A model generated the notes under the pieces. That model searched no databases. It worked only from the letters and a program-made list of their open reading frames with translations, and was not told the origin of the DNA. A DNA stretch of 64,000 nucleotides. Source: Escherichia coli. Its GTDB lineage: Bacteria > Pseudomonadota > Gammaproteobacteria > Enterobacterales > Enterobacteriaceae. The position numbers were made by a program, and so were the translations under genes. Positions within the stretch are counted from its first letter, which is position 1. The number at the start of each line of letters is the position of its first letter. Positions 1 through 18,195 of the stretch are shown here, one piece after another. Location of the stretch: the NCBI RefSeq assembly GCF_013122565.1, contig NZ_CP053258.1; one strand, written 5' to 3'.

Positions 1-521
1 ATTTCGCTGTCGCCGACAAACAGGCCGACGGTCACCTTGCCATGCAGTTGTGGATCGCTGGCGATGGTTTTGGCGAAACGGCTGGCCTGATCGGTTGCCA
101 GGGCGTTCATCGGGTAGATGATAATCGCTTTAACCCCGGCTTGTGACGCGCCCGCGCAGTGGTTGAGCAGCGGGAACATAAAGCATTCTGTTTTACCGGA
201 GCCGGTACCGGTAGCGACCAGCGTCGGCTGTGGCGCGTCGCTTCCCAGACGCTGAAATGCCCGGGCCTGATGCGCGTGCGGCGGGAACGGCAGCGTCAGA
301 TTAGGGAAGAAATTCAGCGGTAAGTCACTTTTACGAAACGGCAACTGGGCGGAAAGGTATGGTCCTTTCAGCAGCGTTTCGGGCTGGGCCAGAAATTGCT
401 CCAGCATTGAGACATTATCGTTATTCTCACCGTTAAACAGCGGGCTGTTTAGCGGGAACGCCGCCCGTAAAAAGGCGGCAACGCTGTCGGCGACCTGCCG
501 ACTGACAACGGACGGCAACAT
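1..521 (-). CDS. DEAD/DEAH-box SF2 helicase, 5' portion only (gene continues beyond window start); DISARM DrmA-like
   Basis: Manual translation of minus strand from ATG at 521-519 gives MLPSVVSRQVADS...PTLVATGTGSGKTECF (Walker A) with no stops to position 1; start overlaps upstream stop (ATGA); RBS-like GGAGAG upstream. Confidence 0.6.
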   Translation of the reverse strand, partial: MLPSVVSRQVADSVAAFLRAAFPLNSPLFNGENNDNVSMLEQFLAQPETLLKGPYLSAQLPFRKSDLPLNFFPNLTLPFPPHAHQARAFQRLGSDAPQPTLVATGTGSGKTECFMFPLLNHCAGASQAGVKAIIIYPMNALATDQASRFAKTIASDPQLHGKVTVGLFVGDSE

Positions 522-3500
522 CAGGCGCTCTCCTTATCTTGTGCAAAGAACGCCCAGGCCACTTTGTAGTCGTCTTCGCGATCCGGCTTGATAAACGGTG
601 CCTGCCAGGTGACGGTACGGCGCTCGCCTTCGTCGCTGCGGGTATAGTCATCAAAGGTGACGCTGACGGTACCAGTTTTAAGATGTTTGACATCATCCCA
701 GCCGATGGCTTGATCGGTGCAGTCACCGCCGGTCCACTCCGGGCTGTCGACGTTAAAGACAAAGCCGTTTTTCAGGTCAGCTTTACGCGCGGTACGCGGC
801 AGACCGACGCCCACCAGCCCTTTGCTTGGGGTAAAGATGATGCGGCCGTTTTGGTCGTACCAGGTGTCCGCTTCGTACTGACGCATCACCGGGAACTGAA
901 CGCGATAAATGGTAAGCAGTTCTTCGAGGGTTAACCCCAGCGCCTGCGCCACCAGTACGTCGATTTCCACCAGCGCCTGACGACGACTGTAGTCAGAGCG
1001 TAAGGCGCAGTTACGCTGCCACTCTGGGGTCAGATTGGTGAAGAAATCCTGGGGGAGCTGCGGGAGATCGCGGCTCCAACGCTGGGTGTTGAAATCTGGG
1101 GTGTAGCAGGATTGCCAGAGATCGGCATAACTTCTCACTAGCGATACAAGGCATAGAGCCCGACTATGTAGTGCTGTACGATAAGCATCATTTGTAAGTA
1201 CTGGCAGTTGGTTAATAAGAGAGGTATTGGCATGCCCCATACCCGTACTTTTCACACGATAATCCAACGGTACAGAAAGAGTCATCGAAAAATAGTCAAG
1301 CAATAATTGAGTATCTTTAAACGCCGTTCCAAGACAAGTATTTATATGGCTCACACCTGGTGGCACAATTGTTGTAATTAATGTTCTTTCAGATGATGGA
1401 CCTATCATTTCACGATTAACAAAACGATAATAGTCCGTCACCTTCCTCGGCTCGTCTTCATCCTGCTCTTTCCACGAAACCCGTGGGGTGCGCTTTGCAT
1501 ACTCCTGTGCATCACAGGCTGGAATATAGTTAGTGCGCGGCAAATAGTCGTCGGGCAGAGTTAGCAAGTCCAGGCAGTCATAATGTCCTTTCTCTGTGCA
1601 AATTTCTCTCGGCGTTTTATAAAGCGGTGTTCCAACATAGAAGTGCGGACCAGACAAAATCCATTGGGATGCGTCTTCCGGGAATTGGGTATGCCGTTCG
1701 ATTGTGCCATCACTTTGTTGATTTGTTTCATGCCACATTTCAAGAGACAAATATTGCCCCTGCAAATCCCCCAGCCGTTTAGGTTGCTTAGCGAATTTTT
1801 CAAGTACAGAAACAAGCGGTTCAGCATGAAGCGCTGGGAGTCGAGCTTCAAGATCCGGCGTTCCCTCTTCATCATAAAGAGTGGCAAATAGTGCAAGCCG
1901 TTCCATTCCAACGGTCAAAATACGGCTTTGATGCCCCGCTTCATTCCAGGAACCTGTTTCGTCATCTTTAATGCCGCCAACTTCACCGGAACCATCATGC
2001 GCAAGACAAAGCTCGATCGTTTTGGCTGAGAAAAGGTTTGCAATATTGATAAAGCCGACAGATTGATTCGGTGAAGCCGTATAAATATTAATGCTGAATT
2101 TAACCCTGTGACCAATAGGGAAAAGCATATGCTGATTCTGAAACTGAAAATGTGCCCTCAGTCTCGGATACACTGCCGCACGAAGCTGCCCGCCTTTCGG
2201 GTCATCATAAATCCCTTCCGGGTGCAGGAAACCTGACACGCCTTTCTGCGCCCCTAAGCGCCAGGCCTGAGGCAGGAAGCATTTATACAAGTTGGTCTGC
2301 ACCCCGCGCAGTACCGGGTAGTTCTGCTGCGCATTGAGGAAGTTTTGCATCCCTTCACAGCCTTCATACTCGCTGCGCCAGGCCGCTTCCAGCGCCGGGA
2401 TCTGGTTGAAGGTATCAATACGCAACGTTGCCAGCTTCGATGCACTCAGCTTACGTAGCACAAATTCCGGCTCGTAATCACCCAGCACGCCCGCTTCCTG
2501 CCATTCCACTTTCAGCCACGGCGGGTTTCCGAGCATCAGGTCAAAACCGCCGCGCTCGGCAAACAGGTCGCAGAACTCCAGATCCCAGTGGAAGAAACGG
2601 TGCTGCTTTCTCAGGGCATCGACAATCGCCAGACGCGGTAAATGACGGAACAACACCTCAGTTTTCAGACGACCTGCGCCGGAAAACAGTGAAGACTCTT
2701 CTCGCAGCAGGCCTTCTTCGGCAAACAGATCACCAGTGGTGTGCTCCGCAACTTCAGTGACTTTTTCCGTAATTACAATCCCGTCGAGCAGGGTTTCAAT
2801 CTCAAACAACCAGGTGCCGCGATCCGGTAACTCATCGGCTTTGTCGATCGGCCAGAACCACAGCGCGCACCAGTAGTCCATTACCCAACGCAGCTTCTGG
2901 TAGGCGCTGTTATCTTCAAGACGACCACTGAAGGTTTCATCTTTACTGCTCAGCGAAGAACGCGTCTGCTCGCTGTTTTCTGCCGGCCACACCGGGTAGC
3001 TGTCGGCGGTTTTCAGACGTTCTGCTTTAAGTTGCTGGCGATAGGTGTTCCACAGTGCTTCCACCTTTTCGCTGATACGCTGCACATCAGCAATCTCATG
3101 CCCGGCAAAGCTTTTAATAAACTCTTTGCGCCAGCTGTCCAGCGCTTTGAAGTCATCCGGATAACGCTGCTTAACGGTTTTATCGCTGTAGTTAGCCATA
3201 CCGCCGTCGGGCAGCAGGAAGTGGAAAATCTGCGTCTCTTCACGCGGCGTGTTCATCGCCAGCTCGACCGGTTCGCTGTTAAGCCAGCTCGGATCTTTGG
3301 CTTTTTTGTAGGTCAGTTCGCTCTTGTTGAACACCTGACGGCGCGCGCCCACCAGCGAGTTACCGCAGTGCAACTGGTAACCAAACCACGGTACAAACGC
3401 ATCGCCACTAATGGCGTTCAGCCACAGTGACACTTCCGCCAGTTCCACCGCCACCGGGTTTAAGTCCACGCCGAAAACGTTGTTGTCGGCAATGTACATT

Positions 3501-5437
3501 TTCACCCGCTGTAACTCCTGGGTGTAACGATCCTGCGGAATACGGCGACCTTCCGCCTGCTGCTTATGGAACAGATACGCTTCCGCCAGCTGGTTGATGG
3601 CTTCGTTAAGGAACGCCGCGCTGCCCATCGCCGGTTCGCACACGGTGAGGTTTAAGATGGCGTCGGCTTTGGCGTGCGGATCGCTAATGGGATCAATCTG
3701 CTCCTTAAACAGTTCTTTCAGAGCATATTTAACCAGTGAGCGGGTCAGCACTTCCGGGGTGTAATAAGATGCAGATTTCTCACGGTCGCGCCCGGCCATA
3801 CGGTAGATAAAACTGCCTTTGCGGTGAATGCGCAGACTGCCGTCTTTCTCGTAGACCTTCTCGTCTTCGTGGTATTTGCCAATCTCATCCTTACTGACGA
3901 AGTAACCCGTCTCCAGCTCGTTAAACTCTTCCCCGGCTTTCTTCACCTCGTAGAGATCTTCGCTGGCGAAGAATCCGCGATAGGAGAGCAGCGCCTCATA
4001 CACCGCACCCAACTGGTTGATACCCAACTGGCGATAAGATATACGTCCACGGCGGTTAAAGCGCCCTTTGCCCGGGCGGCTTAACGACATCGCCTGGATA
4101 ATCTGTTGCAGGGTTTCGTTACGGAATACCACGCGGTTAAGAATGCGGGTGTTGTTGGCATCGAAAAGATGACTTTCCAGACGCGGGACGCTGAACTGAT
4201 GACTATGGATGGTGATCCGGTCGCCGCTCTCCAGGTCACTCTGCATTTTCACGCCGCCGTTGTAGCCTTCGCGCACCAGTTTAAACAGCATATTCAGGCT
4301 GTCGTGGAAGTAGCGCCCGTTGCGATCTTCTTCGCTGGTCAGCGGGATCATCTCCAGATCGCGCAACGTTTCCAGGCTGTAGCCCTGTAGATAGGTTTTG
4401 GCGGTCATTGGCGCATAACCCAGCTCCGGGCGCGCTTCAATGTAGAACAGGAACAGCAGGCGGTACATGTAACGCAGACATTCGCGGCTCAGTTCATCCG
4501 GGTCCACCGCACGGTTACCGGTATAGTTTGCCAGGCCACGGTCGATCAGATAATGCATCGCTTCGTTGCCCAGCAACTCAATGCTTTCGCGCAGGGCATA
4601 TTTCAGATCTTCCGAAACACCAAACGCATGTTTGTGCGAATTGTCATCCAGCGAGTCAAGATAAGGTGCCCCACTGCCCGGCAGCAGAGAATCTTTATGT
4701 AGCAACACCGCCGTCGCTTTCAGCGTATCCGTTTCACGACGACTTAAAATCTCTTCAAAATCAAAACGTAGCAGACGGTTTTGCGCCCACTTAGTACGGT
4801 CCAACAACAATAGCTGACGGTTACCGAGCAGCAGCACAAAACGCGGCGGTTCATTTTGGGTGAAGACCGCCGTAGAGAGCAGATCCTGCCAGCTGCGATA
4901 TTCACCGTTGGCTTTTTTGCGCAGGCTGTCGCGCTTATGTTTGTCGGTATCCGCCGGGAATTGCGCGGTCAGTAAGGAGAGCGCCAGCGGATCCAGCGTT
5001 CCTTCTTCCTGATCGTGTGCTTCAACAATCCACAGCCACGGGCTACCGTCAGTGCTGTTGTAACGCGCCAGTACCGGCAGTGGTGTATCGTCATCCAGCA
5101 TTTGGATCTGCGGCGTAATTTCGTAGCCCAGCGCCTTTAACAATGGCTGCCAGCGATTACGTTGATCGGCCAGACGCTGCGGGATCTGACGCTGTTTTTC
5201 GTGCTCGGCAAGTTTGCGGAAAAACTCAGTCGCCAGACTGTTAAACTGGTTCCACGGAGCGCGGTATCCCGGCTCCACGTCTTTGCCCTGTTCACGAGCG
5301 GCACGTTCCGCTTCACGCGCTGCATTTTCCTGGGCTATCCAGGGTTCCAGCACATCGCGGATATCACTGGTGAAAACCTCACCCAAATAATGGTTAGAGT
5401 AAAATTCGTTTTCGTTATTAATACCGACCAGCGCCAT
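521..5437 (-). CDS. Large N6-adenine DNA methyltransferase (1638 aa), DISARM DrmMI-like
   Basis: ORF track; AdoMet-binding-like motif EPAMGSAAFL and catalytic NPPW motif; sits between SNF2 helicase and DEAD-box helicase genes. Confidence 0.7.
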   Translation of the reverse strand: MALVGINNENEFYSNHYLGEVFTSDIRDVLEPWIAQENAAREAERAAREQGKDVEPGYRAPWNQFNSLATEFFRKLAEHEKQRQIPQRLADQRNRWQPLLKALGYEITPQIQMLDDDTPLPVLARYNSTDGSPWLWIVEAHDQEEGTLDPLALSLLTAQFPADTDKHKRDSLRKKANGEYRSWQDLLSTAVFTQNEPPRFVLLLGNRQLLLLDRTKWAQNRLLRFDFEEILSRRETDTLKATAVLLHKDSLLPGSGAPYLDSLDDNSHKHAFGVSEDLKYALRESIELLGNEAMHYLIDRGLANYTGNRAVDPDELSRECLRYMYRLLFLFYIEARPELGYAPMTAKTYLQGYSLETLRDLEMIPLTSEEDRNGRYFHDSLNMLFKLVREGYNGGVKMQSDLESGDRITIHSHQFSVPRLESHLFDANNTRILNRVVFRNETLQQIIQAMSLSRPGKGRFNRRGRISYRQLGINQLGAVYEALLSYRGFFASEDLYEVKKAGEEFNELETGYFVSKDEIGKYHEDEKVYEKDGSLRIHRKGSFIYRMAGRDREKSASYYTPEVLTRSLVKYALKELFKEQIDPISDPHAKADAILNLTVCEPAMGSAAFLNEAINQLAEAYLFHKQQAEGRRIPQDRYTQELQRVKMYIADNNVFGVDLNPVAVELAEVSLWLNAISGDAFVPWFGYQLHCGNSLVGARRQVFNKSELTYKKAKDPSWLNSEPVELAMNTPREETQIFHFLLPDGGMANYSDKTVKQRYPDDFKALDSWRKEFIKSFAGHEIADVQRISEKVEALWNTYRQQLKAERLKTADSYPVWPAENSEQTRSSLSSKDETFSGRLEDNSAYQKLRWVMDYWCALWFWPIDKADELPDRGTWLFEIETLLDGIVITEKVTEVAEHTTGDLFAEEGLLREESSLFSGAGRLKTEVLFRHLPRLAIVDALRKQHRFFHWDLEFCDLFAERGGFDLMLGNPPWLKVEWQEAGVLGDYEPEFVLRKLSASKLATLRIDTFNQIPALEAAWRSEYEGCEGMQNFLNAQQNYPVLRGVQTNLYKCFLPQAWRLGAQKGVSGFLHPEGIYDDPKGGQLRAAVYPRLRAHFQFQNQHMLFPIGHRVKFSINIYTASPNQSVGFINIANLFSAKTIELCLAHDGSGEVGGIKDDETGSWNEAGHQSRILTVGMERLALFATLYDEEGTPDLEARLPALHAEPLVSVLEKFAKQPKRLGDLQGQYLSLEMWHETNQQSDGTIERHTQFPEDASQWILSGPHFYVGTPLYKTPREICTEKGHYDCLDLLTLPDDYLPRTNYIPACDAQEYAKRTPRVSWKEQDEDEPRKVTDYYRFVNREMIGPSSERTLITTIVPPGVSHINTCLGTAFKDTQLLLDYFSMTLSVPLDYRVKSTGMGHANTSLINQLPVLTNDAYRTALHSRALCLVSLVRSYADLWQSCYTPDFNTQRWSRDLPQLPQDFFTNLTPEWQRNCALRSDYSRRQALVEIDVLVAQALGLTLEELLTIYRVQFPVMRQYEADTWYDQNGRIIFTPSKGLVGVGLPRTARKADLKNGFVFNVDSPEWTGGDCTDQAIGWDDVKHLKTGTVSVTFDDYTRSDEGERRTVTWQAPFIKPDREDDYKVAWAFFAQDKESA

Positions 5438-5439
5438 GA

Positions 5440-8298
5440 TTAACCCTCCGCTCCGGTGATAACAGCAATTACCTGAATGTAGGGTTCTTTTTCAGTCGTC
5501 ATGGTGTCCTCAATCCATTCGATATAGCTGTCAAAATTGTGTTCGATTTCGCGTTGTCTCTGCTCTTTACGGCTCTGCTTGACTGACAATTGCTGTTTGT
5601 TATCGGCAAAATCCAGCTCAAGTTGGCTCAACTGCCGCCCACGCAAAACGTCCAGCTTTTGCAGATGCTCGTTCAGTTGCTGGTTAATGTGCGTTTCAAA
5701 CGCATTCCGATCATGGATAAATACCTCCCGGGCATGCGCAATAGCCGCTTCCAGTAAATCCTGCTGGCGCTGGTGATTACGATCTTTACCGCCGCTGTTA
5801 GTCAGATTGTTACTCAACTGCGGATGACGTTGTAAAAACTCAGCGAATGGCTGACTGCCGATTAGCGATTCACGGTCAAAGCTCACCACTATCCACGGGT
5901 TCACCATCGGATGTGATTTACGGTTCGGGAATAACCCGGAAAGAATGAAGTGATCTTCATCGGGTTCAAGCAGGTATGGCAGACGGATAACCGGTGCCTG
6001 ATGACGACCAAAAGCCGAAGAGATTTTATCGTCCAGCCACTGCACTACCGGGTTGATTTGCCAGAGATACTGCACATCGGGCCAGGCATGTTGCTCACCG
6101 CGAGCGCGCGCAATCGCGTCGGTGATGACGGTTTTATCCTGACTTAAATAGAGCTGCCAGTTCTCCGGGGCAATTTCAGGCGGTAGCTGGTTGAAGCGGC
6201 GGCGTAACTCCTCCGGTGCCACCAGCGACAAGGTATTATCAGGCAAGGTTTCATACTGGATAGTTTGACCACTGGCTTTCAGGTAACCCAATGCTCTTTC
6301 ACAGTACGCCTGTTCGCTGGCAAACAAGCTGGTGTCTGTTTCGGTAACCATTGAGGCATCGCTGGAAACCGCACTGCATATTTCGCCAAACAGATCATGT
6401 TCGGCGCTTTCCGAGACGTTGCTGTTCAGCAGTTGATCAAACAGGCTGGCACCATCATCCTGCATCATGAACTCTGCAACCTGCTCTTCTTCCTCTTCCT
6501 GGGTAAATTTGCCGGTAAACTCCGAACTGTCCCCAATGTTCTTCTGCGCCTGTTCGTCTTTGTTGATCAACACTTCCAGTACGCGCATATCGCCATTGAT
6601 CTGTGGTTCGCTGGCCTCGGTAAGCAGATAGCGGATTTGAGGCTGATGTTTTTGCCCATAGCGGTCAATACGCCCGTTACGTTGCTGGAATACCATCAAC
6701 GACCACGGAATATCAAAGTGAATCATTTTGTGGCTAAGGTGATGCAAGTTGATCCCTTCAGATGCCACATCCGAACAAACCAGAAGACGCAACGGAGACT
6801 GCGTTTTACCAAAGGCTTCTACGGTTTCCATCAATACCGTATCGCCCTGATCGCCGCGCAGCGTGGCGATCTGGTCATCTTTCAATTTCAGATCCGCTCG
6901 CAGTTGCTGTTCGAGGAACTCCAGCGTTTTAATACTTTCGGTGAAGATCACCAGGCGATCTTCCGTGTTATTGGCTTTCCAGGCGAGGTCTTTTCGGATG
7001 GTGTCGAGCAGCAACTGGTATTTGCTAAACTGGCTGGCATCAATGTTATTCAGCGCCAACAGCAATGACTCCAGTTCGTTGATCTGGCTCTGGCTATTAT
7101 GATCTTTACGGCTCTCAAGACGCTTCAGACGATTCGCCACTACGCTGGCACACGCCATCGGGCTGGAAAATAGCGCTTTTTCGAGGGTTATCTTGAACAG
7201 ACGACCTTTGTTAGACTGGGCCTGTTCATCGTCATCATCACGGAACTGGCTCTCAACCAGGCGACGGTATGCTTCTTCTTCGGCACCAGATGCCAGGCGA
7301 GTCAGTTTGACAATATTGCGCTCGGGGAACTCGCCGGACATCTGATCTTTCACGTCTTTTTTGAAGCGACGGACAACCAGATTTTTATCGGCAAAATCGG
7401 CGTATTCATACTCTTTCGGGTTGGCGATCGCCGTCGGGTCAAGCATGTTCATCAGGCTGGCAAAACTTTCAGCCTTACCATCATGCGGTGTTGCTGAAAG
7501 CATAATCAGCGTATCGCTGCGCCCGGCGAGCAGTTTTGCCAGTTTACTGCGTAACGAACTGGTTCCACGTTCTGCGACGTTATGGGCCTCATCAATGACA
7601 ATAATATCCCACCAGGCATTTTCCAGATGGTGACGATATTCAATGTCTTGTTTCAGCGTATCGATGGAGATAATGGTCTTGTCAAAATAGTGGAACGGGT
7701 TGTGGTTGGTTGGGATGCGGTTACGCACCTTTTGTAAACCAGCAGAATCCAGGCGGGTCAATGGGATCGCAAAACGGCTCCAGAACTCCTTCTGGAATTG
7801 TGTCAGCATCGATTTAACCGCCAGAACCAGAATACGTTTTCCGCGCCCACGACGGATCAGTTCCGAAACCAGAATACCGGCTTCCAGCGTTTTACCCAGA
7901 CCGACAGCGTCGGCAATGAGTATCCGCTGGCGCGGTTGTGCCAGCGCCATCCGCGTAGGATCGAGCTGAAACGGCATGGAATCCATCGCCGCCAGATGAC
8001 CAAAATGGACTTTACTGTCTGTCGGTACGCGTTGGCGTAACTGACTTTCAATATACAACTGTGCCGCTTGATAATTGGCGGATTCATCTTCCACCAAATG
8101 CGTTTTTGCGGGATCAAGGATCTCTACTTTTTGTTCCAGTTTGGTCAGAAATAACCCTTCTTTACCGCGCACCAGCTCTGAAATACCATCGCAGGTCAGC
8201 AAATACCCACCATCACCACTGTCATCCGCCCGGCGAATACGCCATTCGGCATCACGAATAACCACCCGCATACCAGGTGCATAATTTTGCTTATTCAT
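5440..8298 (-). CDS. SNF2-family helicase (952 aa), DISARM DrmD-like
   Basis: Walker A GLGKT, DEAH box (VIDEAHNV), C-terminal helicase region; 2 nt upstream of methyltransferase start. Confidence 0.7.
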   Translation of the reverse strand: MNKQNYAPGMRVVIRDAEWRIRRADDSGDGGYLLTCDGISELVRGKEGLFLTKLEQKVEILDPAKTHLVEDESANYQAAQLYIESQLRQRVPTDSKVHFGHLAAMDSMPFQLDPTRMALAQPRQRILIADAVGLGKTLEAGILVSELIRRGRGKRILVLAVKSMLTQFQKEFWSRFAIPLTRLDSAGLQKVRNRIPTNHNPFHYFDKTIISIDTLKQDIEYRHHLENAWWDIIVIDEAHNVAERGTSSLRSKLAKLLAGRSDTLIMLSATPHDGKAESFASLMNMLDPTAIANPKEYEYADFADKNLVVRRFKKDVKDQMSGEFPERNIVKLTRLASGAEEEAYRRLVESQFRDDDDEQAQSNKGRLFKITLEKALFSSPMACASVVANRLKRLESRKDHNSQSQINELESLLLALNNIDASQFSKYQLLLDTIRKDLAWKANNTEDRLVIFTESIKTLEFLEQQLRADLKLKDDQIATLRGDQGDTVLMETVEAFGKTQSPLRLLVCSDVASEGINLHHLSHKMIHFDIPWSLMVFQQRNGRIDRYGQKHQPQIRYLLTEASEPQINGDMRVLEVLINKDEQAQKNIGDSSEFTGKFTQEEEEEQVAEFMMQDDGASLFDQLLNSNVSESAEHDLFGEICSAVSSDASMVTETDTSLFASEQAYCERALGYLKASGQTIQYETLPDNTLSLVAPEELRRRFNQLPPEIAPENWQLYLSQDKTVITDAIARARGEQHAWPDVQYLWQINPVVQWLDDKISSAFGRHQAPVIRLPYLLEPDEDHFILSGLFPNRKSHPMVNPWIVVSFDRESLIGSQPFAEFLQRHPQLSNNLTNSGGKDRNHQRQQDLLEAAIAHAREVFIHDRNAFETHINQQLNEHLQKLDVLRGRQLSQLELDFADNKQQLSVKQSRKEQRQREIEHNFDSYIEWIEDTMTTEKEPYIQVIAVITGAEG

Positions 8299-8365
8299 CG
8301 GTTTTTCTGTCTATTTGGGGCAGTGGCGGTAACGTCATCCTGAAAAATGTGGCGCGGCACACTGC

Positions 8366-8403
8366 GATAAAAAAGAGGGCCTTAAAGATATCATGAAGGC
8401 CCC
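8366..8403 (-). terminator. Rho-independent terminator-like hairpin after druE-like gene
   Basis: Stem GGGCCTT/AAGGCCC followed by T-run on minus strand (A-run 8368-8375 on plus). Confidence 0.45.
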
Positions 8404-8521
8404 CGGCAAAGTGACAAAATGGGAGGGAATGCGCATAAATTGCGCATGATTTTCAAACAAAAATTATTAAAAAGTGAGCTGGGTCAACTCCCCTGGAAGA
8501 TATCCCCAGGGGAGCAATTAT

Positions 8522-11500
8522 TTATCCAGCGATAACATAACTCCTAAGGTCATTACCCGGGGCAACAGCTCGCGATCGCGTGTTTGCCAGCCGTTCAACT
8601 TGCTGCGGTACTCGCAGAGCAAAATCAAATAAGGTGTCTTCAATACAGCGCCAGTAGCTAAGCCCCATGTCGAGCAGGACATAATGCTGACTGCCATCGC
8701 TGAAGGTGACTGTCAGTTCTCGTCCATGCTCCGTACTCTGGTTATCCCCCGTTAACCAGCTAATTGCTCCCGGCCACGCAGGCCCCAGATATCCTTCTTC
8801 AAGTAAAGTGGTCACAACCTGCTGACGATCTTCCTCATTAAGCCACGCGTTATAGAGAGCGTCGTGTTGGCGAGAGTTGTAATCCAATTTTTTGACGCAA
8901 ACAGTGAGGCTGGCGCGTTCCGCCATTCCCTGTTCAACCAGCTCGGTTAAGATTTCACCTAACAAACGCGCCGTGAATGGGCTATTAAGATAACGATCGC
9001 TGTACTCAACATGCGTTATCTCTTTGTGGCGGGTAAATGCCTGCTTCCAGCCAGCGTGCTGTTGCGTGACTAACGACCAGAAACGCGAACCAAAACCTTC
9101 CAGCGGCCCGTCCAGTTGTTCACAGAGATTGATGCGCACCGCCCCGGTGGGTAAGGCGGGCAGTAAATCTTCTGCACTTAAGGTCTGACCCGAGAAGGTT
9201 TTTCCGGACGTTCCTTTAAGTGTCACTACTGGTGAAGACGCACTTTGTCCCCATAATTCACCAGGGGCAACGGTAGCGCTGTCGTCTGCGGCCCACTGTT
9301 GGCTTTGCCCTTCGCGAGTCACCTGCGCAAGCCAGCGCCCCTTTCCTTGCATGAGTTGCGCAGTGGCAATGGATTTCACTTGTAAGCGTCCTCCCGGCAT
9401 CGCCGCCAACGCGGAAAGCTGATGTCTGGAGCTATCAGTTAAGTTTTCCAGCGGCGTGGCCACCAGCAACTCAACATTCCCACCGGAGGAAGCAAACTGG
9501 AGCAACTCTTTAAATAATGGCCATTGGGCAAAGTCCCACTGTTCCTGCGGCCCCGCAAGAACCAGCGAGCAGGAGTCATAAATCTCGCTGTTCAGGCATT
9601 GCGCAATACGTAAACTCAGAGGGTTAGTTTCAACCCGGCTACCATCGCCGAAGTACTGATATTCTGGCGCGAGGTTAAGTCGCTGCAACCGTACATTGGT
9701 AAGCAGGGTTAATGCATGGTGACGATCTAATCTGTTGACATAATGCTGACTGTCGTAGCTGAGCAAGCAGTGGTGACAGAATTTATCGCAACTGCAATCG
9801 AGCAATTTTCTGGCGTAATTAAAGACATCAGCCCAATGGTCGATCAATTGCACTGCATAACCTGCACCACCCGCATTATTGTCGTAAATGAAGATGGAAT
9901 ATCCGGTATAGCCATTGATATCGCGCGCTTGCTGCGTCGTCACGCCCAGCTCAGTATTTTCGATACCCAATTTATGCGCTAACCCTTCACGCAAAGCGAC
10001 CGCAAGGGAACGCGCGGCAACCTCATCACGGATCAACAGGCCATTATCATCATTGAGTTGCAGCTCAACCATATCTGTACGACTGCTATACCCCAACCAC
10101 AGATCTTTATGCACATGACCGTGGCACAATTTATTGCTCCCCTGACGATCGTTACTGCCCCCTCGCAACAGGTAATGCGTATTTTCCCGCTCTGGGTTCT
10201 TTAGATTTTCAGGGGTACGCTGGGGTTGAGTTTGAGATTCTGCCCGACCACATGAGAGGCAAATTGCGTAGCCGTGCCCAAATTCCCCTTCACTGAAGTG
10301 GAACAATTCCCCACTATGGCTAAAACGGTAACGTCCTAGCCCAGCATCGGGTAAAGAAACCCACACCGAAGACGGTACAAGAACACGTGGATCTTTCCAG
10401 GGAAGTTGTGCAGGCATGGATACATCATTATGTGCCTGATAACGAATATCTGTCGCAAAACCAACAGGCTGTAAATAACGCTTCACATCAAGTTGCTGTA
10501 TATCCGCTTTGCAGTGACTACATTCGACAGGACGGGTAGTACTGGTTGCCCCCGCACCACATTTACGGCAATGCCAGAACCACGGAATATGATGATCGCC
10601 TGACAGCTCCTGCCCGCTGGCAAGTACCTTGCCAAGCATAATGCCCGAGGAACGATATACTTTTCCGCCCAATACCACATCTGCACCAGGCGCATACTCG
10701 CGTAATGCTGTAGGTAGATCACGGCTGGGCAATTTTTCAATACGACGAGAAAAGCTTTCTCCCCCTTCATTAGGGTCAGCCTGAGTGGCTTTTATTGCGC
10801 GACGTTTTTCCAGCTCATCTGCCGTCAGATAATTGAAATTGACTACGCCAACCGGGAAACCATGCCCCGGCAGGAACGCTTCACTAATGAGTTTAGAAAA
10901 CAGATATGCACCGCGATAATCACGAAGCTGATAAGCGATGGCTTTACCTGCTGGCGTTTCTTCCCACGCGCTGTTATCCGCCTTCAACGCTTCGATATTT
11001 TCCAACAGTATCGCAAGTTGGCTTCTCCAGCGGATATCAACCTGCTGCATCATTGCTTGTGTGCGGGTCAAGAGCTGGGTTGCCGTCAATGACATCAGGA
11101 CGGTTCCCTGAGTAAGGCGTTTAAGTTTATCCGCCAGCTGATCGGCCTGGTGATTTAACCAATGGAGAAAACGAAGACACTGGCTCTCATCACCTTCAAA
11201 GAACCATTTGCAACTCAGTTTTGTCGCATCAGGAACTTCAGCTCGTAAAAACAGACCTAAAACCAGGGCATTAACATGTCGTTGAACAATGCTACTGCTC
11301 CCAAAACGAACCCGTGGCGCACTGGCAGTAGTGTTGAACGCCCAGAGGGGGTCTTTGAATACCTCCATTCCATGCGCCGTGTTTTTACATAACGTAATGG
11401 CAGCAGATGCACTCTCTCCACGACGCCCCGCGCGACCTGCACGTTGCAAATAATTTGCCGGCGCTGGAGGAACGTTGTTCATTGCCACCAAACTCATACC

Positions 11501-14500
11501 ACCAATATCCACCCCCATCTCCATGGTCGTGGAACAGTTCAGCACATTAACTTTGCCTGACTTAAATTGTTTTTCATTAAACTGGTTCTGCTCAGGCGTT
11601 CTCTGCGCAGAGTGTTCCTCCAGACGATACCAGCTATCTTTCAGGGCCAGTCGGTCGCTGCGAGTAGACCATAATCCTTCCTCGCGGGCATGTTGAATCA
11701 GCGCATTACTTTCCAGCCACTCCAGACGTTCTTCTCGGGCGATTTCTCCACCACCAGACAAACGCCAGTGACGTACAGGAAGCTCAGGCATTTCAATCAA
11801 CACTGCTTTTTCAGGTGCAATTTCTTTGCTACCCGGCAAATACGGAGAGTATCCCAGCAACGTGACGTCTAACGCACGTCGAGTATAGGGGCAACGCCAC
11901 ACTTGCTTTGGACTGTAAAATTCAGCTTGTTGTTTAATATCCAGCTGATAACCCGACTCAAACTGACGTAAGCAGGGTCGAATTGCATCCCAGACCTCAA
12001 TCATTAAGTGGTTAACTAACGATTTCCAGTGAGCCTGCTCAGGTTGTATTGCCGGAAAGACTGCGATTAATAGCTTAATGACCCGGTTATAATGGCGATC
12101 GCGTATTTGTGGCCAAAGTTGATCACGTTTCTGCCCTTTGTTTTTTTTATCTGGCCCCTGGAGCATTTTTACCGGGAAACGTGCCCCCATCCAGCGAGGG
12201 TATTGCTCGTTTTCGTAAAAAACGGCACTGTTTTCACGGATAAAGAAATCAAGAGTAATCTTCAATAAATTACGCCATTCCGCTAATTGCTTATCGGGAT
12301 CGGGTAATAATGTCTTCCAGTCCTGCGGGCAGGTTGTAACTTTATCAATAAATGGATAGTGAATGGCTACCAGACCCAGACTTTCGAGGGTCCAGGCATT
12401 TTTAGGGCGGCGACCAAACTCGCTGTATAAACAAAAATCTGCAAACTGTTGTTTAGTAAGATCAAGCCCAGACAATTCTTTAAAACTGCCTCTCATTCTA
12501 TCGGCAAGGTCCACACTGCCAACCAGCTGTTCAGACAGCGTTTGCCATGACATGGTTTTCTTCTGCTGATTGCCAGAGTTAGCCTGAAGTATTTGCATCG
12601 CTTCAGCATGATCCGGGCTTAAGGAACTCACCATCGGCTCAATAATTTTAAGTGCCTGAATGTCCGCCGGGCTAAGCTCCTCATTCGCAGCCATCGCTTT
12701 TTTCAGCGCGTCGATGGAATTTTTTAAAGGGAGGACAGAAAACTGGCTAATAACTTTCTCTAACAGTGCACAGTGTGCCGGGCTGAGTTTTGCTGAAGGC
12801 TCTGTAATATTTGCCAGCTCCTGGTAACAAAGAGCTCGCAACGTCGCTTTATCGGCATCCTGCTGTAAGCGAGCTGAAATGCGAGCGGTACCCTGACGCG
12901 AATCCGTAAAGGTGAGCAAGCGTCGACCATTAAACGGTCCTAACTGCTCTTCTCTTGTTTGCGGTAATGGAGAAAACTCCAGCAGAGTAGGAATAATTTC
13001 ATTTAAAAAAAAGGGCGCGCCGAGCCGAAGCGGACGGAATAAAGGATTATTTTTCCGTTGAGTGTCACCACAGCACACACAAGCAAAGGAGTTATTGCGT
13101 CCCTCACCTCGAGATTCCGGTCTTAACAGGTTTATTTCATAGTGCTTTTGCGCTTCACTATCAATTTTCCCCGCCGTCGTTTCTTCCAGTGAAATGATAT
13201 ATTTTTCACCATCGCTCGCAATCAGACGATCAAATTGAGAGTTATTGTCTAATTCGTCGTTGTCTTCATCTTCAGAATAAACATCTACATCAAGAGCAAA
13301 CTCATCCACTTCGGCAGCGGCGGGTTGCGCTACCAACCAGTTCGTTCCATCACCGCGCATCTCCTCTTTGGCAGACAAATAAGCTGAACCACACCCGGAG
13401 CAACGTAAAACTTCAAATACCGGCGCACCACAGTCACAATATTGGCGCTGCTCAAACCATACCTGACCAAATGGCCAGTCACTCTGATTTAATTCATGTG
13501 CTTTATGTGAGCATTGTTTGTTTGAACATGCCCATAGACCCGCCAGTGTTCTGATAAACCCATGCATACGTAATGGCGTAAAAGCCAGTTCACCTTCTCG
13601 CGATCTTGCCATTAGATCGAGGAGTTGCAGTAGCTCACGGTGATTAATATCTGGCCAGGTTCTTCTGGCAACATTGAGCAACTCACTCAAACGTACTGCC
13701 TGCCGTCCGGGATGAGTTAACGCCTGACGCAATTGCTGGGCCACACGGTAATGACAAAGCTGTTGGTAAAGATCCTGAGGGCTCAGGGATTTAAGAGAAG
13801 TTAAAGATGTGGGGTATTCATGACGAATCAGCGACTCCGATACCCGCGGTATTTGTCGATAACCGCGAACCACTTTGACATCACGTTCTGTAACGCCCGC
13901 GAGATCAGCGACAAATTTAGCAAGCTCCTTATTACCTTCAGGAGAGTCTTCACCAATAGTGGCAGAGGTCGCGATAATCTGCACAGGTTTATCTGTGCCG
14001 GGTCCAACATTGAAAGCCTGCATAACACGACGTAAAAGCAGCGCTAACTCAGCAGCCTGAGAACCAATATAACTATGGGCTTCATCCAGGACGATATACT
14101 TTAACATCCCCTGAGACTTTTCGATGATTGGGGCATCTTTACGACGAATCAGCATATATTCCAGCATGGTGGTATTCGTCACCATGATGGAAGGTGGTGC
14201 TTCATAAATGGCTTCCCGACTCAAAGCTTGTTCAGGTACTTTCAACTGATCTTCCTGAATTTCGTATTTGGTATGCCGGGTTTCGCCATTATATAGCGCG
14301 AAGCGTATTTTCCCCTTAAATCCGCGCGTCCATTCGCGAAGCCGCTCCTGTTGGCTGTTAATTAATGCATTTAACGGATACAAGAAAATAGCTTGTGTCC
14401 CTGTTAGTGACTGGCGGGTCGATTTTTGCTGACGAATAAGATCTTCCAGAACAGGTACCATAAAGCATTCTGTTTTCCCGGATCCCGTACCGCTGCTCAC

Positions 14501-14845
14501 TAACAAGGATTTTTTGTCTTCCAGAATCGTTCGCCACGCAGTGAGTTGATGACGAAATGGCACTGGCGCTTTGCTCAATGCATCAACCAGCGGGCTGGAG
14601 ATCAGCTTGTCCCGCAAATCCTCCATTGTTTCATCCGCAGGCATCCAGCCGAATGTACTTTCGAATACCGGGTCTGCAAGCAGTGACCCCTCCTGACCGG
14701 GAGGCTGAAAATATTGTGATTCCAGATAATGAGTCAACGACTTGCTCCGCAATGCCAACTGACTTACCACCGACCTCACCGCACGCTGATGAAGCTGATT
14801 TAGAAGTGGCGCATAATGCAGTTGCTGAACGTCCATCAATGACAT
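8522..14845 (-). CDS. Very large helicase (2107 aa) with C-terminal cysteine-rich DUF1998-like zinc ribbon; Druantia DruE-like
   Basis: Motifs GTGSGKTECFM (Walker A), VLDEAHSY (DEAH), C-terminal CxxC clusters (CSCDKFCHHC); size and architecture match DruE. Confidence 0.7.
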   Translation of the reverse strand: MSLMDVQQLHYAPLLNQLHQRAVRSVVSQLALRSKSLTHYLESQYFQPPGQEGSLLADPVFESTFGWMPADETMEDLRDKLISSPLVDALSKAPVPFRHQLTAWRTILEDKKSLLVSSGTGSGKTECFMVPVLEDLIRQQKSTRQSLTGTQAIFLYPLNALINSQQERLREWTRGFKGKIRFALYNGETRHTKYEIQEDQLKVPEQALSREAIYEAPPSIMVTNTTMLEYMLIRRKDAPIIEKSQGMLKYIVLDEAHSYIGSQAAELALLLRRVMQAFNVGPGTDKPVQIIATSATIGEDSPEGNKELAKFVADLAGVTERDVKVVRGYRQIPRVSESLIRHEYPTSLTSLKSLSPQDLYQQLCHYRVAQQLRQALTHPGRQAVRLSELLNVARRTWPDINHRELLQLLDLMARSREGELAFTPLRMHGFIRTLAGLWACSNKQCSHKAHELNQSDWPFGQVWFEQRQYCDCGAPVFEVLRCSGCGSAYLSAKEEMRGDGTNWLVAQPAAAEVDEFALDVDVYSEDEDNDELDNNSQFDRLIASDGEKYIISLEETTAGKIDSEAQKHYEINLLRPESRGEGRNNSFACVCCGDTQRKNNPLFRPLRLGAPFFLNEIIPTLLEFSPLPQTREEQLGPFNGRRLLTFTDSRQGTARISARLQQDADKATLRALCYQELANITEPSAKLSPAHCALLEKVISQFSVLPLKNSIDALKKAMAANEELSPADIQALKIIEPMVSSLSPDHAEAMQILQANSGNQQKKTMSWQTLSEQLVGSVDLADRMRGSFKELSGLDLTKQQFADFCLYSEFGRRPKNAWTLESLGLVAIHYPFIDKVTTCPQDWKTLLPDPDKQLAEWRNLLKITLDFFIRENSAVFYENEQYPRWMGARFPVKMLQGPDKKNKGQKRDQLWPQIRDRHYNRVIKLLIAVFPAIQPEQAHWKSLVNHLMIEVWDAIRPCLRQFESGYQLDIKQQAEFYSPKQVWRCPYTRRALDVTLLGYSPYLPGSKEIAPEKAVLIEMPELPVRHWRLSGGGEIAREERLEWLESNALIQHAREEGLWSTRSDRLALKDSWYRLEEHSAQRTPEQNQFNEKQFKSGKVNVLNCSTTMEMGVDIGGMSLVAMNNVPPAPANYLQRAGRAGRRGESASAAITLCKNTAHGMEVFKDPLWAFNTTASAPRVRFGSSSIVQRHVNALVLGLFLRAEVPDATKLSCKWFFEGDESQCLRFLHWLNHQADQLADKLKRLTQGTVLMSLTATQLLTRTQAMMQQVDIRWRSQLAILLENIEALKADNSAWEETPAGKAIAYQLRDYRGAYLFSKLISEAFLPGHGFPVGVVNFNYLTADELEKRRAIKATQADPNEGGESFSRRIEKLPSRDLPTALREYAPGADVVLGGKVYRSSGIMLGKVLASGQELSGDHHIPWFWHCRKCGAGATSTTRPVECSHCKADIQQLDVKRYLQPVGFATDIRYQAHNDVSMPAQLPWKDPRVLVPSSVWVSLPDAGLGRYRFSHSGELFHFSEGEFGHGYAICLSCGRAESQTQPQRTPENLKNPERENTHYLLRGGSNDRQGSNKLCHGHVHKDLWLGYSSRTDMVELQLNDDNGLLIRDEVAARSLAVALREGLAHKLGIENTELGVTTQQARDINGYTGYSIFIYDNNAGGAGYAVQLIDHWADVFNYARKLLDCSCDKFCHHCLLSYDSQHYVNRLDRHHALTLLTNVRLQRLNLAPEYQYFGDGSRVETNPLSLRIAQCLNSEIYDSCSLVLAGPQEQWDFAQWPLFKELLQFASSGGNVELLVATPLENLTDSSRHQLSALAAMPGGRLQVKSIATAQLMQGKGRWLAQVTREGQSQQWAADDSATVAPGELWGQSASSPVVTLKGTSGKTFSGQTLSAEDLLPALPTGAVRINLCEQLDGPLEGFGSRFWSLVTQQHAGWKQAFTRHKEITHVEYSDRYLNSPFTARLLGEILTELVEQGMAERASLTVCVKKLDYNSRQHDALYNAWLNEEDRQQVVTTLLEEGYLGPAWPGAISWLTGDNQSTEHGRELTVTFSDGSQHYVLLDMGLSYWRCIEDTLFDFALRVPQQVERLANTRSRAVAPGNDLRSYVIAG

Positions 14846-17800
14846 ACTCCTGCTTGTTCAAAATAATATTGATAGATTACCCCTAATTGCTGTGGGGCTT
14901 GCTGATAGTGAAATTCAAAAAGCGCAGACAGTTGATGTATCAGGTTATTATCTTTTTGGGTTAACAGCGCTGCGACTAACATCAAATTAAAACGTTTTTC
15001 AAGCCGTGAGTGATATTTATCTTCAATCCAAAGCTTATTAAAAACAGATTTTAACTCTGGAGTAATAGCACTGGACCAAAGTTCTTTAGGGAAGATACTG
15101 ATACGCCCAAAGCTGTCGGGGTTCCTTAATAGCATCTGTTTAGCTTCATTAAACTGCTCACGACTAACAGTTGGCAATACATCACAACCGGTTGGTAGGC
15201 TCTCACTATATGTAAGTAACATATTCGCAATGGGAGCCAGCCGACGATCGATATGTGCACGATGGTTCATAAAAGCAATAAAGGGTCGCAATATATGTAA
15301 TGCTAATGTTTTATCGTTAATCTGTTTTTCCAGATAAGTCCAACATTTTTGGAAAACATCTTTCCAGATTGAAACGGGAATCCATCCCCATGAAAAGGGT
15401 AATTCTTCCTGTATATCATAAATCGTATCGCTATCACCAGAAAGACATGATGATATTAACAATTGAACAACCACGCGGTAATTACTCGAAATACATCTGA
15501 ACAAGTCCAGATCCAGCAAGGATAAGCCATTATTCATTTTGTATTTCTTAATATACTCTGTTAATAAACAGCAATAATTTTGCAATGGGTTGTTATCTAT
15601 TTCAAAAATTAGCTCATTAAAATTTTTTTTGCGCTGTTCTGGGTCTGCTTCGCATAGAGCATTTAGTAATAAATCATTTGTCTGTAATACAGGTAGCATC
15701 CATTTAATTACTGGTGCAATGCGAGCTGTACCATCCAGTTTTCCCACAATTAACCATGGACTATCCTGAACATTCAGAGCTGAAAGATCATAAGCAAACT
15801 CATCTTTTTTTAACAATGATATGTGTAAGCCAGGATTCTTAAGAGAAATAGCATCAACAACCAGTTCGTCTATTCTATTTGCAGGAAAAACAACAGAATT
15901 TTTTATATCAACCAGTAACCCTTGATCGTGTTCAATAAAACTACCATCGTAGCGTTTAATATTGAGTGTTGCTTTATCCTTTCCAAATCTGTCAGAGTAA
16001 AAATCAACACATAATGTACTATTGCTGTTCCATGCACATGCCAGCATAGCATTTAGCAAATTATAGTTCTCATAAAGTGAAATTTGTTGTAATTTGTCAT
16101 TGCGTCCTGATAAAAGAGGAAGGTCGGCATGTAAATAACGGAATTTTTCAGCTACTGGATTTTCATCGAATAACTCGATATTAAGATATCCTCTTCCAGC
16201 ACATGATATGGTTAATAACTCAGCATCTATTCCATGCAAATGTGCTATAGATGCCACACCATCAAAATGAACAGAACCATCATTAGTTACAAATCGGCCA
16301 CCGCTAACCGGCTTAGGTAATAATAGTTTAAGATTAGAACCATCTTTCCAGGAGACCCGTAAATCAACGGTATTTTCCAGCATCTGCGATGAATTATAAT
16401 AAATAGCACACTCGTTTTGTGAATAATCGGACTTAAGTGTTACTTTTTCATTGTTTGAATATTTATCAATTCTAGTATCCGTTATACCAGAAAGTATAAT
16501 AATGCCTTGCTGAGCACTCTCAGGTATAATATTAATATCGAAGTCTGCTGGTAAAACTACAACTTTACCGCTAAATAAAACCTCATCATTAACTATTCGC
16601 CGGACTTCTATCTGTCCTTTTGGCATTTCTGATGCGACAGAATACCAGGCATTGTTACCTGAACGAATGGAACGCCAAAAAAGTTCTTTCTCCGGTACAA
16701 TGCCATATTGTAGATCCTTTTTCCAACCGATCTTCGGCCAGGCTCGATGGACAGGATAATCCGATTTAACCAGTTCAACTTCTGTCGATTTAATATAATA
16801 TTCAATTGCAGAATCATAAAGTTGCTGGGTGCGAATTGTACAAACAGCACCATCATGTAAAACAACGCTAAATACTCCACTTATTTTAGTTAAGCTGCGT
16901 TCACTGTTTTTCAGCAACCTTGGGATATCAAACTCACCTTCTCCACTAATATCTAAATGGCTATTTTTCGGTAGCGAAATAAACAGAGCATTTAGCCTGG
17001 AACTCACAGACCCCATACCAACAAGTTTTAGCTGCGATTCACTCTCATTCATCGCTTCAAAAACCCAGGGAAGTTCTTCAGTAAGTTCATAACCGCCTTT
17101 TGGAATTGTGTGACCTAACAGAATTGGACCTTCATGAAGCGACAATGAGATTTCGGCCATTGCATCTGCACCAGAGAGTTTTTGCATCGCAATAGGTAAT
17201 AACTCGACCCGCCAATCTTGCTGCTCATAACGGCTTAGCATTGCCAACCTTGCCCCGCCATTTTTCCATTTTCCTGAAATGATGAGTCGGGTCTGCTCCG
17301 GCTGAATATGGCATTCAAACAAAGAGGTTAACTGTTCTGTACGCATTGTGGCCGGGAATCGGAACCGGGCATCGCAATACCAACTGTCATCAACATCGAC
17401 CCAGATTCTTTCAACCTGAAGACTACTTGCACTGCGTATTTCAGAAGATTGAGAAAGTAATCGCCTTACAATCTCTGCAGCATTCGCTTCGGGGAGAACG
17501 AGTGGAAGTTGAAGATGCCAGTCTGGAGAGAGCTTACGTAATGCAGAAACGGGATCACTGCTTTGAGGAGGATGCTCACTAAGTAATCGGCAGAGAGTCT
17601 CGCAGAATTCACCGGCTATTTCATAGACCAGTTCGTTTTGCATTGTGACAGGAATCGTATCGCCTAATTCTTGTGCAATTTTAGCGGCAGGATATTGAGA
17701 TGATTGCCCACGAAGCGCCTGATATATCCTTCTGAAATAGGTAATCAAATAACCGCTCTCATTTTCAATCATGCGGATAGGTAAACCACCTTCACAAGCC

Positions 17801-18195
17801 AGTGTATGCAGATAACCCGAAGCTTGCCCCAGGTTTCTTATCTTTCTTTTCCAGTAGCGAATGCCATCATTAACCAGCTTCTGTCGATGAACATACGGAA
17901 CTTTCCAGTTAATAGAATCTAAAATTGTGTCCCATTTAGGGTGTCCGACCGTATGAGTTCGGCGGATAAACTCTGCGGCATATATGCTAAATAGAACATC
18001 GCTATAGGAAATGAATATCGTTCTTGGATAACTACGGGGGGCATATGTACGCAGTAGTTCTGCCAAACTTTCGTACTCTGTATCAGTACAACGGTAAGCA
18101 TATAACGCCCGTCCATCAGCTCCGGATAATGAACGGCGACTAAAAAACATGTTAAGCCATTGCAAAAGTGGGTTAACTGGAGTTTTCACAAGCAA
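14836..18195 (-). CDS. Large protein of unknown function (1119 aa); Druantia type III DruH-like by position
   Basis: Long ORF immediately upstream of and overlapping the DruE-like gene by 10 nt; no recognisable catalytic motif. Confidence 0.5.
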   Translation of the reverse strand: MLVKTPVNPLLQWLNMFFSRRSLSGADGRALYAYRCTDTEYESLAELLRTYAPRSYPRTIFISYSDVLFSIYAAEFIRRTHTVGHPKWDTILDSINWKVPYVHRQKLVNDGIRYWKRKIRNLGQASGYLHTLACEGGLPIRMIENESGYLITYFRRIYQALRGQSSQYPAAKIAQELGDTIPVTMQNELVYEIAGEFCETLCRLLSEHPPQSSDPVSALRKLSPDWHLQLPLVLPEANAAEIVRRLLSQSSEIRSASSLQVERIWVDVDDSWYCDARFRFPATMRTEQLTSLFECHIQPEQTRLIISGKWKNGGARLAMLSRYEQQDWRVELLPIAMQKLSGADAMAEISLSLHEGPILLGHTIPKGGYELTEELPWVFEAMNESESQLKLVGMGSVSSRLNALFISLPKNSHLDISGEGEFDIPRLLKNSERSLTKISGVFSVVLHDGAVCTIRTQQLYDSAIEYYIKSTEVELVKSDYPVHRAWPKIGWKKDLQYGIVPEKELFWRSIRSGNNAWYSVASEMPKGQIEVRRIVNDEVLFSGKVVVLPADFDINIIPESAQQGIIILSGITDTRIDKYSNNEKVTLKSDYSQNECAIYYNSSQMLENTVDLRVSWKDGSNLKLLLPKPVSGGRFVTNDGSVHFDGVASIAHLHGIDAELLTISCAGRGYLNIELFDENPVAEKFRYLHADLPLLSGRNDKLQQISLYENYNLLNAMLACAWNSNSTLCVDFYSDRFGKDKATLNIKRYDGSFIEHDQGLLVDIKNSVVFPANRIDELVVDAISLKNPGLHISLLKKDEFAYDLSALNVQDSPWLIVGKLDGTARIAPVIKWMLPVLQTNDLLLNALCEADPEQRKKNFNELIFEIDNNPLQNYCCLLTEYIKKYKMNNGLSLLDLDLFRCISSNYRVVVQLLISSCLSGDSDTIYDIQEELPFSWGWIPVSIWKDVFQKCWTYLEKQINDKTLALHILRPFIAFMNHRAHIDRRLAPIANMLLTYSESLPTGCDVLPTVSREQFNEAKQMLLRNPDSFGRISIFPKELWSSAITPELKSVFNKLWIEDKYHSRLEKRFNLMLVAALLTQKDNNLIHQLSALFEFHYQQAPQQLGVIYQYYFEQAGVCH

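Follow-up and report, generated by a model that had tools for sequence, protein, structure and literature searches.

The palindrome ATGCGCA-TAAAT-TGCGCAT at positions 8429 to 8447 lies in the spacer between the defense genes druE and armA of Escherichia coli and, on the minus strand, has the sequence of the RNA stem-loop AUGCGCA-AUUUA-UGCGCAU. It is an ordinary feature that occurs in the E. coli lineage only, and nothing shows it to be a conserved regulatory site. Our preferred reading, which we hold tentatively, treats it as an RNA stem-loop, specific to this lineage, within the druE 3' region and armA leader, where it may act in cis on RNA structure or stability beside a neighboring terminator. 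Its sequence, its fold, and its lineage distribution were established directly, as were the association of the spacer with armA and the transcription of the spacer in the sense direction; an effect on RNA stability or termination is inferred.

Palindrome and its position between two defense operons

Within the window, which is the whole 64-kb stretch of E. coli DNA that was analyzed, the minus strand is the coding strand of every gene at the locus. The upstream gene, druE (8522 to 14845), encodes the helicase-nuclease of Druantia III (PADLOC DruE3, 2182 bits), ends in a stop codon at 8522 to 8524, and is accompanied by DruH3 (14836 to 18195). The downstream gene, armA (5440 to 8298), is the first gene of ARMADA II and encodes a DrmD-like SNF2 helicase (PADLOC DrmD, 1.4e-99), the NCBIfam DrmD score of which is below the curated cut-off; ArmA is the name of this protein in the literature. 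A gene for a large type IIG/DrmMI-like methyltransferase is located at 521 to 5437. In the first-pass annotation, the two operons were called Druantia-like and DISARM-like; the former label is refined here to Druantia type III (druHE), and the latter needs updating to ARMADA type II (armABCD). Recent papers describe an array on O-island 172 that consists of Zorya II, Druantia III (druHE), and ARMADA II (armABCD), and they show that the systems act in synergy. These papers contain no promoter or terminator mapping for the druE-armA spacer. The 321 bases around the palindrome match many complete genomes at 100% identity and are present in 527 of 5,426, including that of O157:H7 strain Sakai, in which this region is located in the phage-like element SpLE6. 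No regulator gene is annotated in SpLE6.

In some genomes, RefSeq names the druE product "motility-regulating DEAH-box RNA helicase," apparently after a 2013 study of Z5898, and this name is probably misleading. Because the deletion of druE/Z5898 was reported to affect motility, the EHEC motility sRNA Esr41 was suspected at this locus, and it was ruled out, being located in SpLE1/OI-43.

The spacer between the two genes has a length of 223 nt (8299 to 8521), and the palindrome is located about 130 nt upstream of armA. The earlier description of the palindrome is borne out in both sequence and placement, as its 7-bp arms match perfectly around a 5-nt spacer and it lies between the druE stop codon and a hairpin that resembles a terminator and carries U6 (8367 to 8404). 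The arms end at 7 bp because the flanking bases, A at 8428 and G at 8448, are not complementary. TGCGCA is its own reverse complement, and the palindrome therefore doubles as a direct repeat of TGCGCAT with a spacing of 11 bp. The RNA hairpin alone has a folding energy of -8.6 kcal/mol and appears as an independent hairpin in all folds of the spacer. In addition, over positions 8524 to 8360, the minus-strand RNA folds with a minimum free energy (MFE) of -49.2 kcal/mol (z = -3.9 against shuffles), which indicates that the spacer is more structured than expected by chance.

The exact palindrome pattern occurs a single time in the window, with 0.05 occurrences expected. Perfect 7-bp inverted repeats with loops of 3 to 8 nt number 59 in the window, compared with 28 ± 5 in shuffles, and at least one such repeat is found in 7.9% of the dinucleotide shuffles of the 223-nt spacer. 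Such repeats are common as a class, and the palindrome is therefore correct as observed, yet it is statistically unremarkable when taken alone. The window contains 6 matches to it at up to 3 mismatches, compared with 5.2 expected in 64 kb, so related copies are not enriched there. REP/BIME and other dispersed palindromic repeats are present in many copies per genome, which is not the case here: across the 534 genomes with the 106-nt module, the median is one place per genome and the maximum is two. In over 500 E. coli genomes, the palindrome is a fixed feature, although these carry near-clonal copies of one island.

The proposal that the palindrome might belong to the termination structure finds no support. 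It folds as a separate hairpin, the terminator stem begins 24 nt further downstream, and the sequence after it is UCCCUCCC and not a U tract. An intrinsic terminator has a GC-rich stem with a run of U within 0 to 2 nt of it; the stem of the palindrome continues into UCCCUCCCAUUUUG, and the terminator scan does not list it.

Distribution of the spacer and variation of the stem

Spacer sequences were obtained from E. coli genomes and plasmids, from species-representative genomes with the DruE C terminus as the query (5 loci), and from metagenomes by a DNA-pattern scan with a conserved 22-nt block as the query (45 loci), and 39 distinct versions were compared. The conserved block had no match in viral contigs. 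Throughout the 39 versions, the spacer travels with armA and not with druE. It precedes an intact armA where the upstream position is occupied by an unrelated two-gene cassette (L023, L027, L028, and L041), an IS (L046), a divergently oriented gene (L020), or another gene with its own terminator (L049), and in the last of these, the homology starts only about 16 nt before the palindrome.

The two-gene cassette, which encodes proteins of 1569 and 743 aa, occupies exactly the place of druHE at L003:1974-8911 and is also present in L017, L023, L027, L028, and L041. Its proteins have no match in Pfam, PADLOC, or NCBIfam. Homology to the druE-armA spacer starts right at the cassette stop codon, and an intact armA follows in several metagenome contigs; the cassette is a candidate for an uncharacterized defense pair partnered with ARMADA II.

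The stem of the palindrome varies among the lineages. In the sense orientation (5' arm/loop/3' arm), the E. coli type reads ATGCGCA/ATTTA/TGCGCAT and is the only lineage with perfect pairing besides the loop variants L011 and L016, in which the loop is AATTA and the stem is unchanged. One mismatch is present in L045 (ATGGGCA), two G·U pairs are present in L019 (ATGCGTA/TGCGTAT) and in the Siccibacter type (ATGCGTG/TGCGCAT), and three G·U pairs are present in L014 (ATGTGTG). A large metagenome group (ATGCGTT/TGCGTAT) has two G·U pairs and one mismatch, and the L023/L028 type (ATACGTG) has one A·C. The Yersinia/Serratia/Enterobacter type reads AAACTAA/TGCGAGA at this position and forms no hairpin, which indicates that the hairpin is needed by neither defense system. 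The hairpin and the neighboring terminator are confined to one sublineage over an older spacer and are therefore derived features.

The 20 distinct variants of the E. coli and Siccibacter types allow sense-strand pairing in 90.7% of the stem cells. G·U pairs account for 32 of the 140 stem cells, and these would be A·C mismatches on the other strand or breaks in the DNA dyad, so that about 68% of the cells are Watson-Crick. The retention of pairing on one strand via G·U and the occurrence of loop-only variants (ATTTA to AATTA) that keep the stem support the stem-loop reading. Counting against it, the covariation of the helix is not above that of column shuffles: the stem shows one G-C to A-U change, no measure exceeds the shuffles, and the variants are closely related. 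The stem columns are as variable as their flanks, L045 breaks a pair, and L023/L028 carry the A·C mismatch.

Transcription, neighboring elements, and the armA leader

The elements of the spacer are arranged on the sense (minus) strand in the order of a post-stop hairpin, an AU-rich stretch, the palindrome hairpin, a C-rich linker, the terminator-like hairpin, and, after 67 nt, the armA AUG. The linker UUCCCUCCCAUUUUGUCACUUUGCC (8405 to 8428, approximate limits) is rich in C and poor in G and is unpaired in the folds. Its CCCUCCC motif is not conserved, being CCCUCCC in E. coli, ACCUUCC in L019, and ACAUUCC in the Siccibacter type, which has UACAUUCC in the linker. The terminator-like element (8367 to 8404, minus strand) is composed of the arms GGGGGCCUU and AAGGCCCUC around a 12-nt loop, followed by UUUUUUAU, with a folding energy of -14.9 kcal/mol. 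The stem-loop at 8375 to 8404 together with the U6 tract at 8369 to 8374 has the form of an intrinsic (Rho-independent) terminator, and the terminator scan missed it because its 12-nt loop exceeds the 8-nt loop limit of the scan. Only the E. coli type and its sister, the L019 type, have an intact stem; plasmid variants (GGGAGCC) have a weakened one and the remaining lineages have none, with 66% of the cells pairing overall.

The GC-rich post-stop hairpin (8488 to 8514, minus strand) is located directly 3' of the druE stop codon and has no U tract. It has three stems in three lineages (CCCCTGG/CCAGGGG, CCCCCAC/GTGGGGG, and CCCCTGCC/GGCAGGGG), which represent compensatory changes through which it is conserved in all lineages, and it is followed by a conserved GTTGAC and is also kept behind the alternative cassette. 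An integron attC-like reading of this hairpin and GTTGAC was rejected by eye, as the core site does not fit. The sequence AAGATATC, with an EcoRV site (GATATC), is present in the loops of both the terminator hairpin (8385 to 8392) and the post-stop hairpin (8497 to 8504); it is not conserved elsewhere, and its sharing by the two loops is probably a coincidence.

A position weight matrix (PWM) scan predicts a sigma-70-like promoter, TTGACC-N15-TAATTT (8461 to 8487, minus strand), with a start near 8454, 6 to 7 nt before the palindrome. The prediction is weak, with a short spacer of 15 nt and conservation nowhere beyond the E. coli and Siccibacter types. No sigma-70 promoter common to the lineages was found at a shared position by the PWM scan and the alignment, and matches to sigma-32, sigma-28, and sigma-54 promoters in the spacer are poor by eye. 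In every lineage, the spacer contains more C than G on its sense strand, with C/G ratios of up to 1.7, 2.45, and 2.75 compared with 0.5 to 0.9 in the flanking genes; the excess regions extend over about 8300 to 8490 (minus strand) and, in L005 and L006, about 5397 to 5530. By base composition, this excess resembles a rut site, a binding region of the termination factor Rho, in a putatively untranslated leader.

Hücker et al. (2017; PMC5597208) included XECs454 among 465 intergenic ORFs with a ribosome-profiling signal in Sakai. This candidate small ORF of 49 codons (8291 to 8440, minus strand; Sakai BA000007.2, 5373639 to 5373785) starts at an ATT in the palindrome loop, and its stop codon overlaps armA codons 2 and 3. 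The coordinates of the older record BA000007.2 are 127 nt lower than those of NC_002695.2, an offset that can lead searches of older supplements astray. XECs454 has strand-specific RNA-seq RPKM values of 129/92/42 for the sense-strand interval 8440 to 8294 in O157:H7 Sakai and RIBOseq RPKM values of 66/11/2, with 66 and a ribosome coverage value (RCV) of 0.52 in LB (PMC5597208). The published RPKM values over the fixed XECs454 interval show sense-strand transcription on both sides of the terminator. Published tables for the same strain contain no orphan Hfq-CRAC site with a coordinate beginning with 5373 and no RNase E-CLASH hybrid at 53735 to 53738; both are look-ups in supplement text, in which absence is weak evidence. 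By eye, the other ORFs over the palindrome, which are one 18-codon ORF on the plus strand, two on the minus strand, and a fusion ORF in L049, are not conserved. In that fusion (L049:620-830), which is seen in one metagenome contig only, a rearrangement has fused the spacer to an ATG with a strong Shine-Dalgarno sequence, giving an ORF of about 50 codons that passes through the palindrome and the terminator.

The armA leader is deeply conserved. An invariant 34-nt block, TCTTTAAnnnCCTCTTTTTTATCGCAGTrTGCmG (8355 to 8388, minus strand), is present in all lineages (the types of E. coli, Siccibacter, Yersinia, and Serratia), even though identity in the DruE C terminus is only 65% between types. In E. 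coli, the terminator shares its 3' arm and U tract with this block, whereas no stem is possible in the other lineages. RNAalifold predicts a conserved structure of the leader (8294 to 8371, minus strand) in which GCAGUG (8360 to 8365) pairs with CACUGC (8320 to 8325) and UUUAUCG (8365 to 8371) pairs with CGAUGAA (8294 to 8300). In these pairs, 94.4% of the cells are paired and the covariation is 0.182, compared with 0.122 in shuffles, a value reached by 0 of 500 shuffles and to which only two deep clades contribute; the GCAGUR-YRCUGC helix shows a G-C to A-U switch between clades. CGAUGAA contains the armA AUG, the complementary UUUAUCG is invariant, and the armA start region ACAGACAGAAAAACCGAUGAA is conserved in all lineages and has no Shine-Dalgarno sequence. 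The predicted pairing suggests that the armA start codon may be sequestered by the leader. These results support the view that the spacer is a structured armA leader acting as RNA, and the RNA-level reading of the palindrome is therefore the natural one; likewise, the covariation-backed structure in the rest of the leader makes RNA-level selection in the spacer credible.

The position of the palindrome may have an older history. In L020, armA follows a divergently oriented gene and therefore needs its own promoter, and the sole sigma-70-like site there (L020:6948-6975) is TTTACA-16-TAAATT, with its -10 element at the place that corresponds to the E. coli palindrome in the alignment. The Yersinia-type spacer has the same promoter-like TTTACA-16-TAAATT at the palindrome position, whereas the E. 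coli type lacks this site and has the weaker candidate TTGACC-N15-TAATTT further upstream. On the basis of these alignments, an ancestral armA promoter may have been located at the palindrome position and may have been replaced in the E. coli type.

Possible roles of the stem-loop and comparison with known systems

A role of the palindrome at the RNA level near the terminator is plausible. In the proposed mechanism, a sense transcript would run from druE to armA, and the palindrome would be the DNA image of the 7-bp stem and 5-nt loop of this transcript. The stem-loop is a recent addition, made in the E. coli lineage, to an otherwise conserved, untranslated, C-rich armA leader, and the neighboring terminator (8367 to 8404) arose in the same lineage; between them, the two hairpins would enclose about 90 nt, roughly from 8454 to 8367. 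The stem-loop would act in cis and at the RNA level, as a nuclease-resistant 5'-proximal or internal fold on either the terminated RNA or the read-through armA leader. In this way, it may modestly tune the survival of upstream transcription, whether druHE read-through or transcription from the TTGACC-N15-TAATTT promoter, for the expression of armABCD. In addition to the stem variation described above, the occurrence of a chance palindrome in about 8% of such spacers and the weakness of the predicted promoter count against this reading. A more elaborate and rather improbable version is that the E. coli spacer has evolved into a unit of promoter-like site, 5' hairpin, unpaired CCCUCCC, and terminator, which would serve as a riboregulator of about 90 nt or a conditional attenuator gating ARMADA II, couple it to the transcription of Druantia III, and contribute to the synergy of the systems.

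It is nearly as likely that the palindrome is neutral and arose by chance through drift in a fast-evolving spacer, in which case the RNA hairpin would form and nothing would depend on it. The probability of at least one such repeat in spacer shuffles (P = 0.08), the 59 members of this class in the window, the stem covariation not exceeding that of shuffles, the perfect form in only one sublineage with absence from another, and the natural stem-mismatch variants (L045 and L023/L028) all fit this explanation, as does the lack of an Hfq peak or RNase E hybrid listed at the palindrome in the published tables. However, in a rough parsimony count from the alignment, stem substitutions lean toward those that preserve sense-strand pairing, with about 6 to 7 wobble or compensated changes and about 5 disruptive ones, compared with about 25 to 30% expected if the stem were neutral, and fixation extends over more than 500 E. 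coli genomes, although in near-clonal copies of the island. If the palindrome instead acted as DNA, it would be an operator of armA, repressed or activated by a dimeric regulator bound to the dyad or by a tandem binder on the two TGCGCAT repeats, which are one helical turn apart. The perfect dyad with its 11-bp direct repeat, the parallel change of both copies in L019 (TGCGCAT to TGCGTAT), and the promoter-like site at the same position in the Yersinia type agree with such binding, and the location, centered at about +17 relative to the predicted start and closely following a promoter-like site, would suit a repressor. The conservation pattern makes an operator unlikely, as the dyad symmetry is poorly kept (about 68% Watson-Crick cells in the 20 variants; ATGCGTG/TGCGCAT in the Siccibacter type), the 5' arm is absent from the Yersinia type, copies in the window are at the chance level, and no regulator is annotated in the island. 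We know of no E. coli transcription factor with a consensus matching the palindrome, and the earlier suggestion of a regulatory site, if meant as a protein-binding site, finds no support.

Two further readings concern a product of the spacer. A trans-acting sRNA of about 90 nt, transcribed from its own promoter or released by termination in the leader, would consist of the 5' hairpin, a single-stranded CCCUCCC seed that pairs with Shine-Dalgarno-like targets, and the terminator. The folds contain this architecture, with a terminator hairpin and U tail after an unpaired seed; a promoter-like site lies 6 to 7 nt upstream, and the fold of the 94-nt segment has a z of -2.4. An Rfam search of the spacer returned sub-threshold matches only, among them mmgR (RF00519; 25.1 bits; E = 0.002 in the 231-nt search; 8362 to 8452, minus strand), but this match falls far short of the gathering threshold of 41, and its E would be near 0.5 for the whole window. 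Moreover, the seed is not conserved among orthologous loci, its complementarity to sites in the window is at the chance level, the plasmid variants (GGGAGCC) have a weaker terminator, and neither an orphan Hfq site at Sakai 5373xxx nor an RNase E-CLASH hybrid is listed, which together leave an sRNA improbable to a still greater degree than an operator. The palindrome is least likely of all to be part of a small protein gene starting at the ATT in its loop. Ribosome footprints are reported for XECs454 (RIBOseq RPKM 66 in LB; RCV 0.52), but its 3' end overlaps the armA start, and armA footprints would therefore count toward it; it has a rare ATT start, no predicted Shine-Dalgarno sequence, no homologue found, and a classifier call of "pseudo" (PMC5597208). 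Relatives carry 1-nt indels and stops that interrupt its frame, variants with the AATTA loop lack the ATT, and the conservation of the conserved stretch is of nucleotides and extends to third codon positions.

Taken alone, the palindrome matters little, being a common kind of short hairpin in one lineage, and it is the context that gives it value. The spacer belongs to armA, its deeply conserved leader can pair with the armA start codon, and the E. coli lineage has added the hairpin and the terminator. More noteworthy than the palindrome are the conserved armA leader, which may sequester the start codon, the terminator gained recently between two synergistic systems, and the uncharacterized two-gene cassette that replaces druHE. 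The spacer elements are concrete mutation targets for distinguishing an ARMADA operon that is insulated from Druantia from one that is coupled to it.

The 5' hairpin of E. coli ompA and the intercistronic hairpins at operon junctions protect mRNA from decay. The palindrome resembles these stabilizers in being a short, stable, untranslated hairpin on the transcribed strand, between co-directional operons and near a predicted 5' end; it differs from them in lying 6 to 7 nt from that end, compared with within a few nucleotides in the classic cases, in being lineage specific, and in being known here from folds. The palindromic operators bound by restriction-modification controller (C) proteins or by other dimeric repressors are likewise dyad sites upstream of a methyltransferase-containing defense operon, but the palindrome has no regulator gene nearby, is present in a single copy, and has half-sites that are not conserved. 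The layout of the alphaproteobacterial sRNA family RF00519 (suhB/mmgR) is similar, with a small hairpin at the 5' end, then a CCUCCC-type motif that is unpaired, and finally a U-tailed terminator. This generic resemblance, at 25.1 bits against a gathering score of 41, is to a family from a different phylum, and the motif of the spacer is not conserved in its relatives. A parallel from the same organism is StxS, a short RNA produced by early termination in the leader of the Shiga toxin PR' transcript of EHEC (PMC7547250), in which a promoter-like site and an intrinsic terminator also delimit about 90 nt before a long operon on a mobile island; it differs from the druE-armA spacer in that the terminator of the latter is missing in sister lineages and its unit is predicted from sequence.
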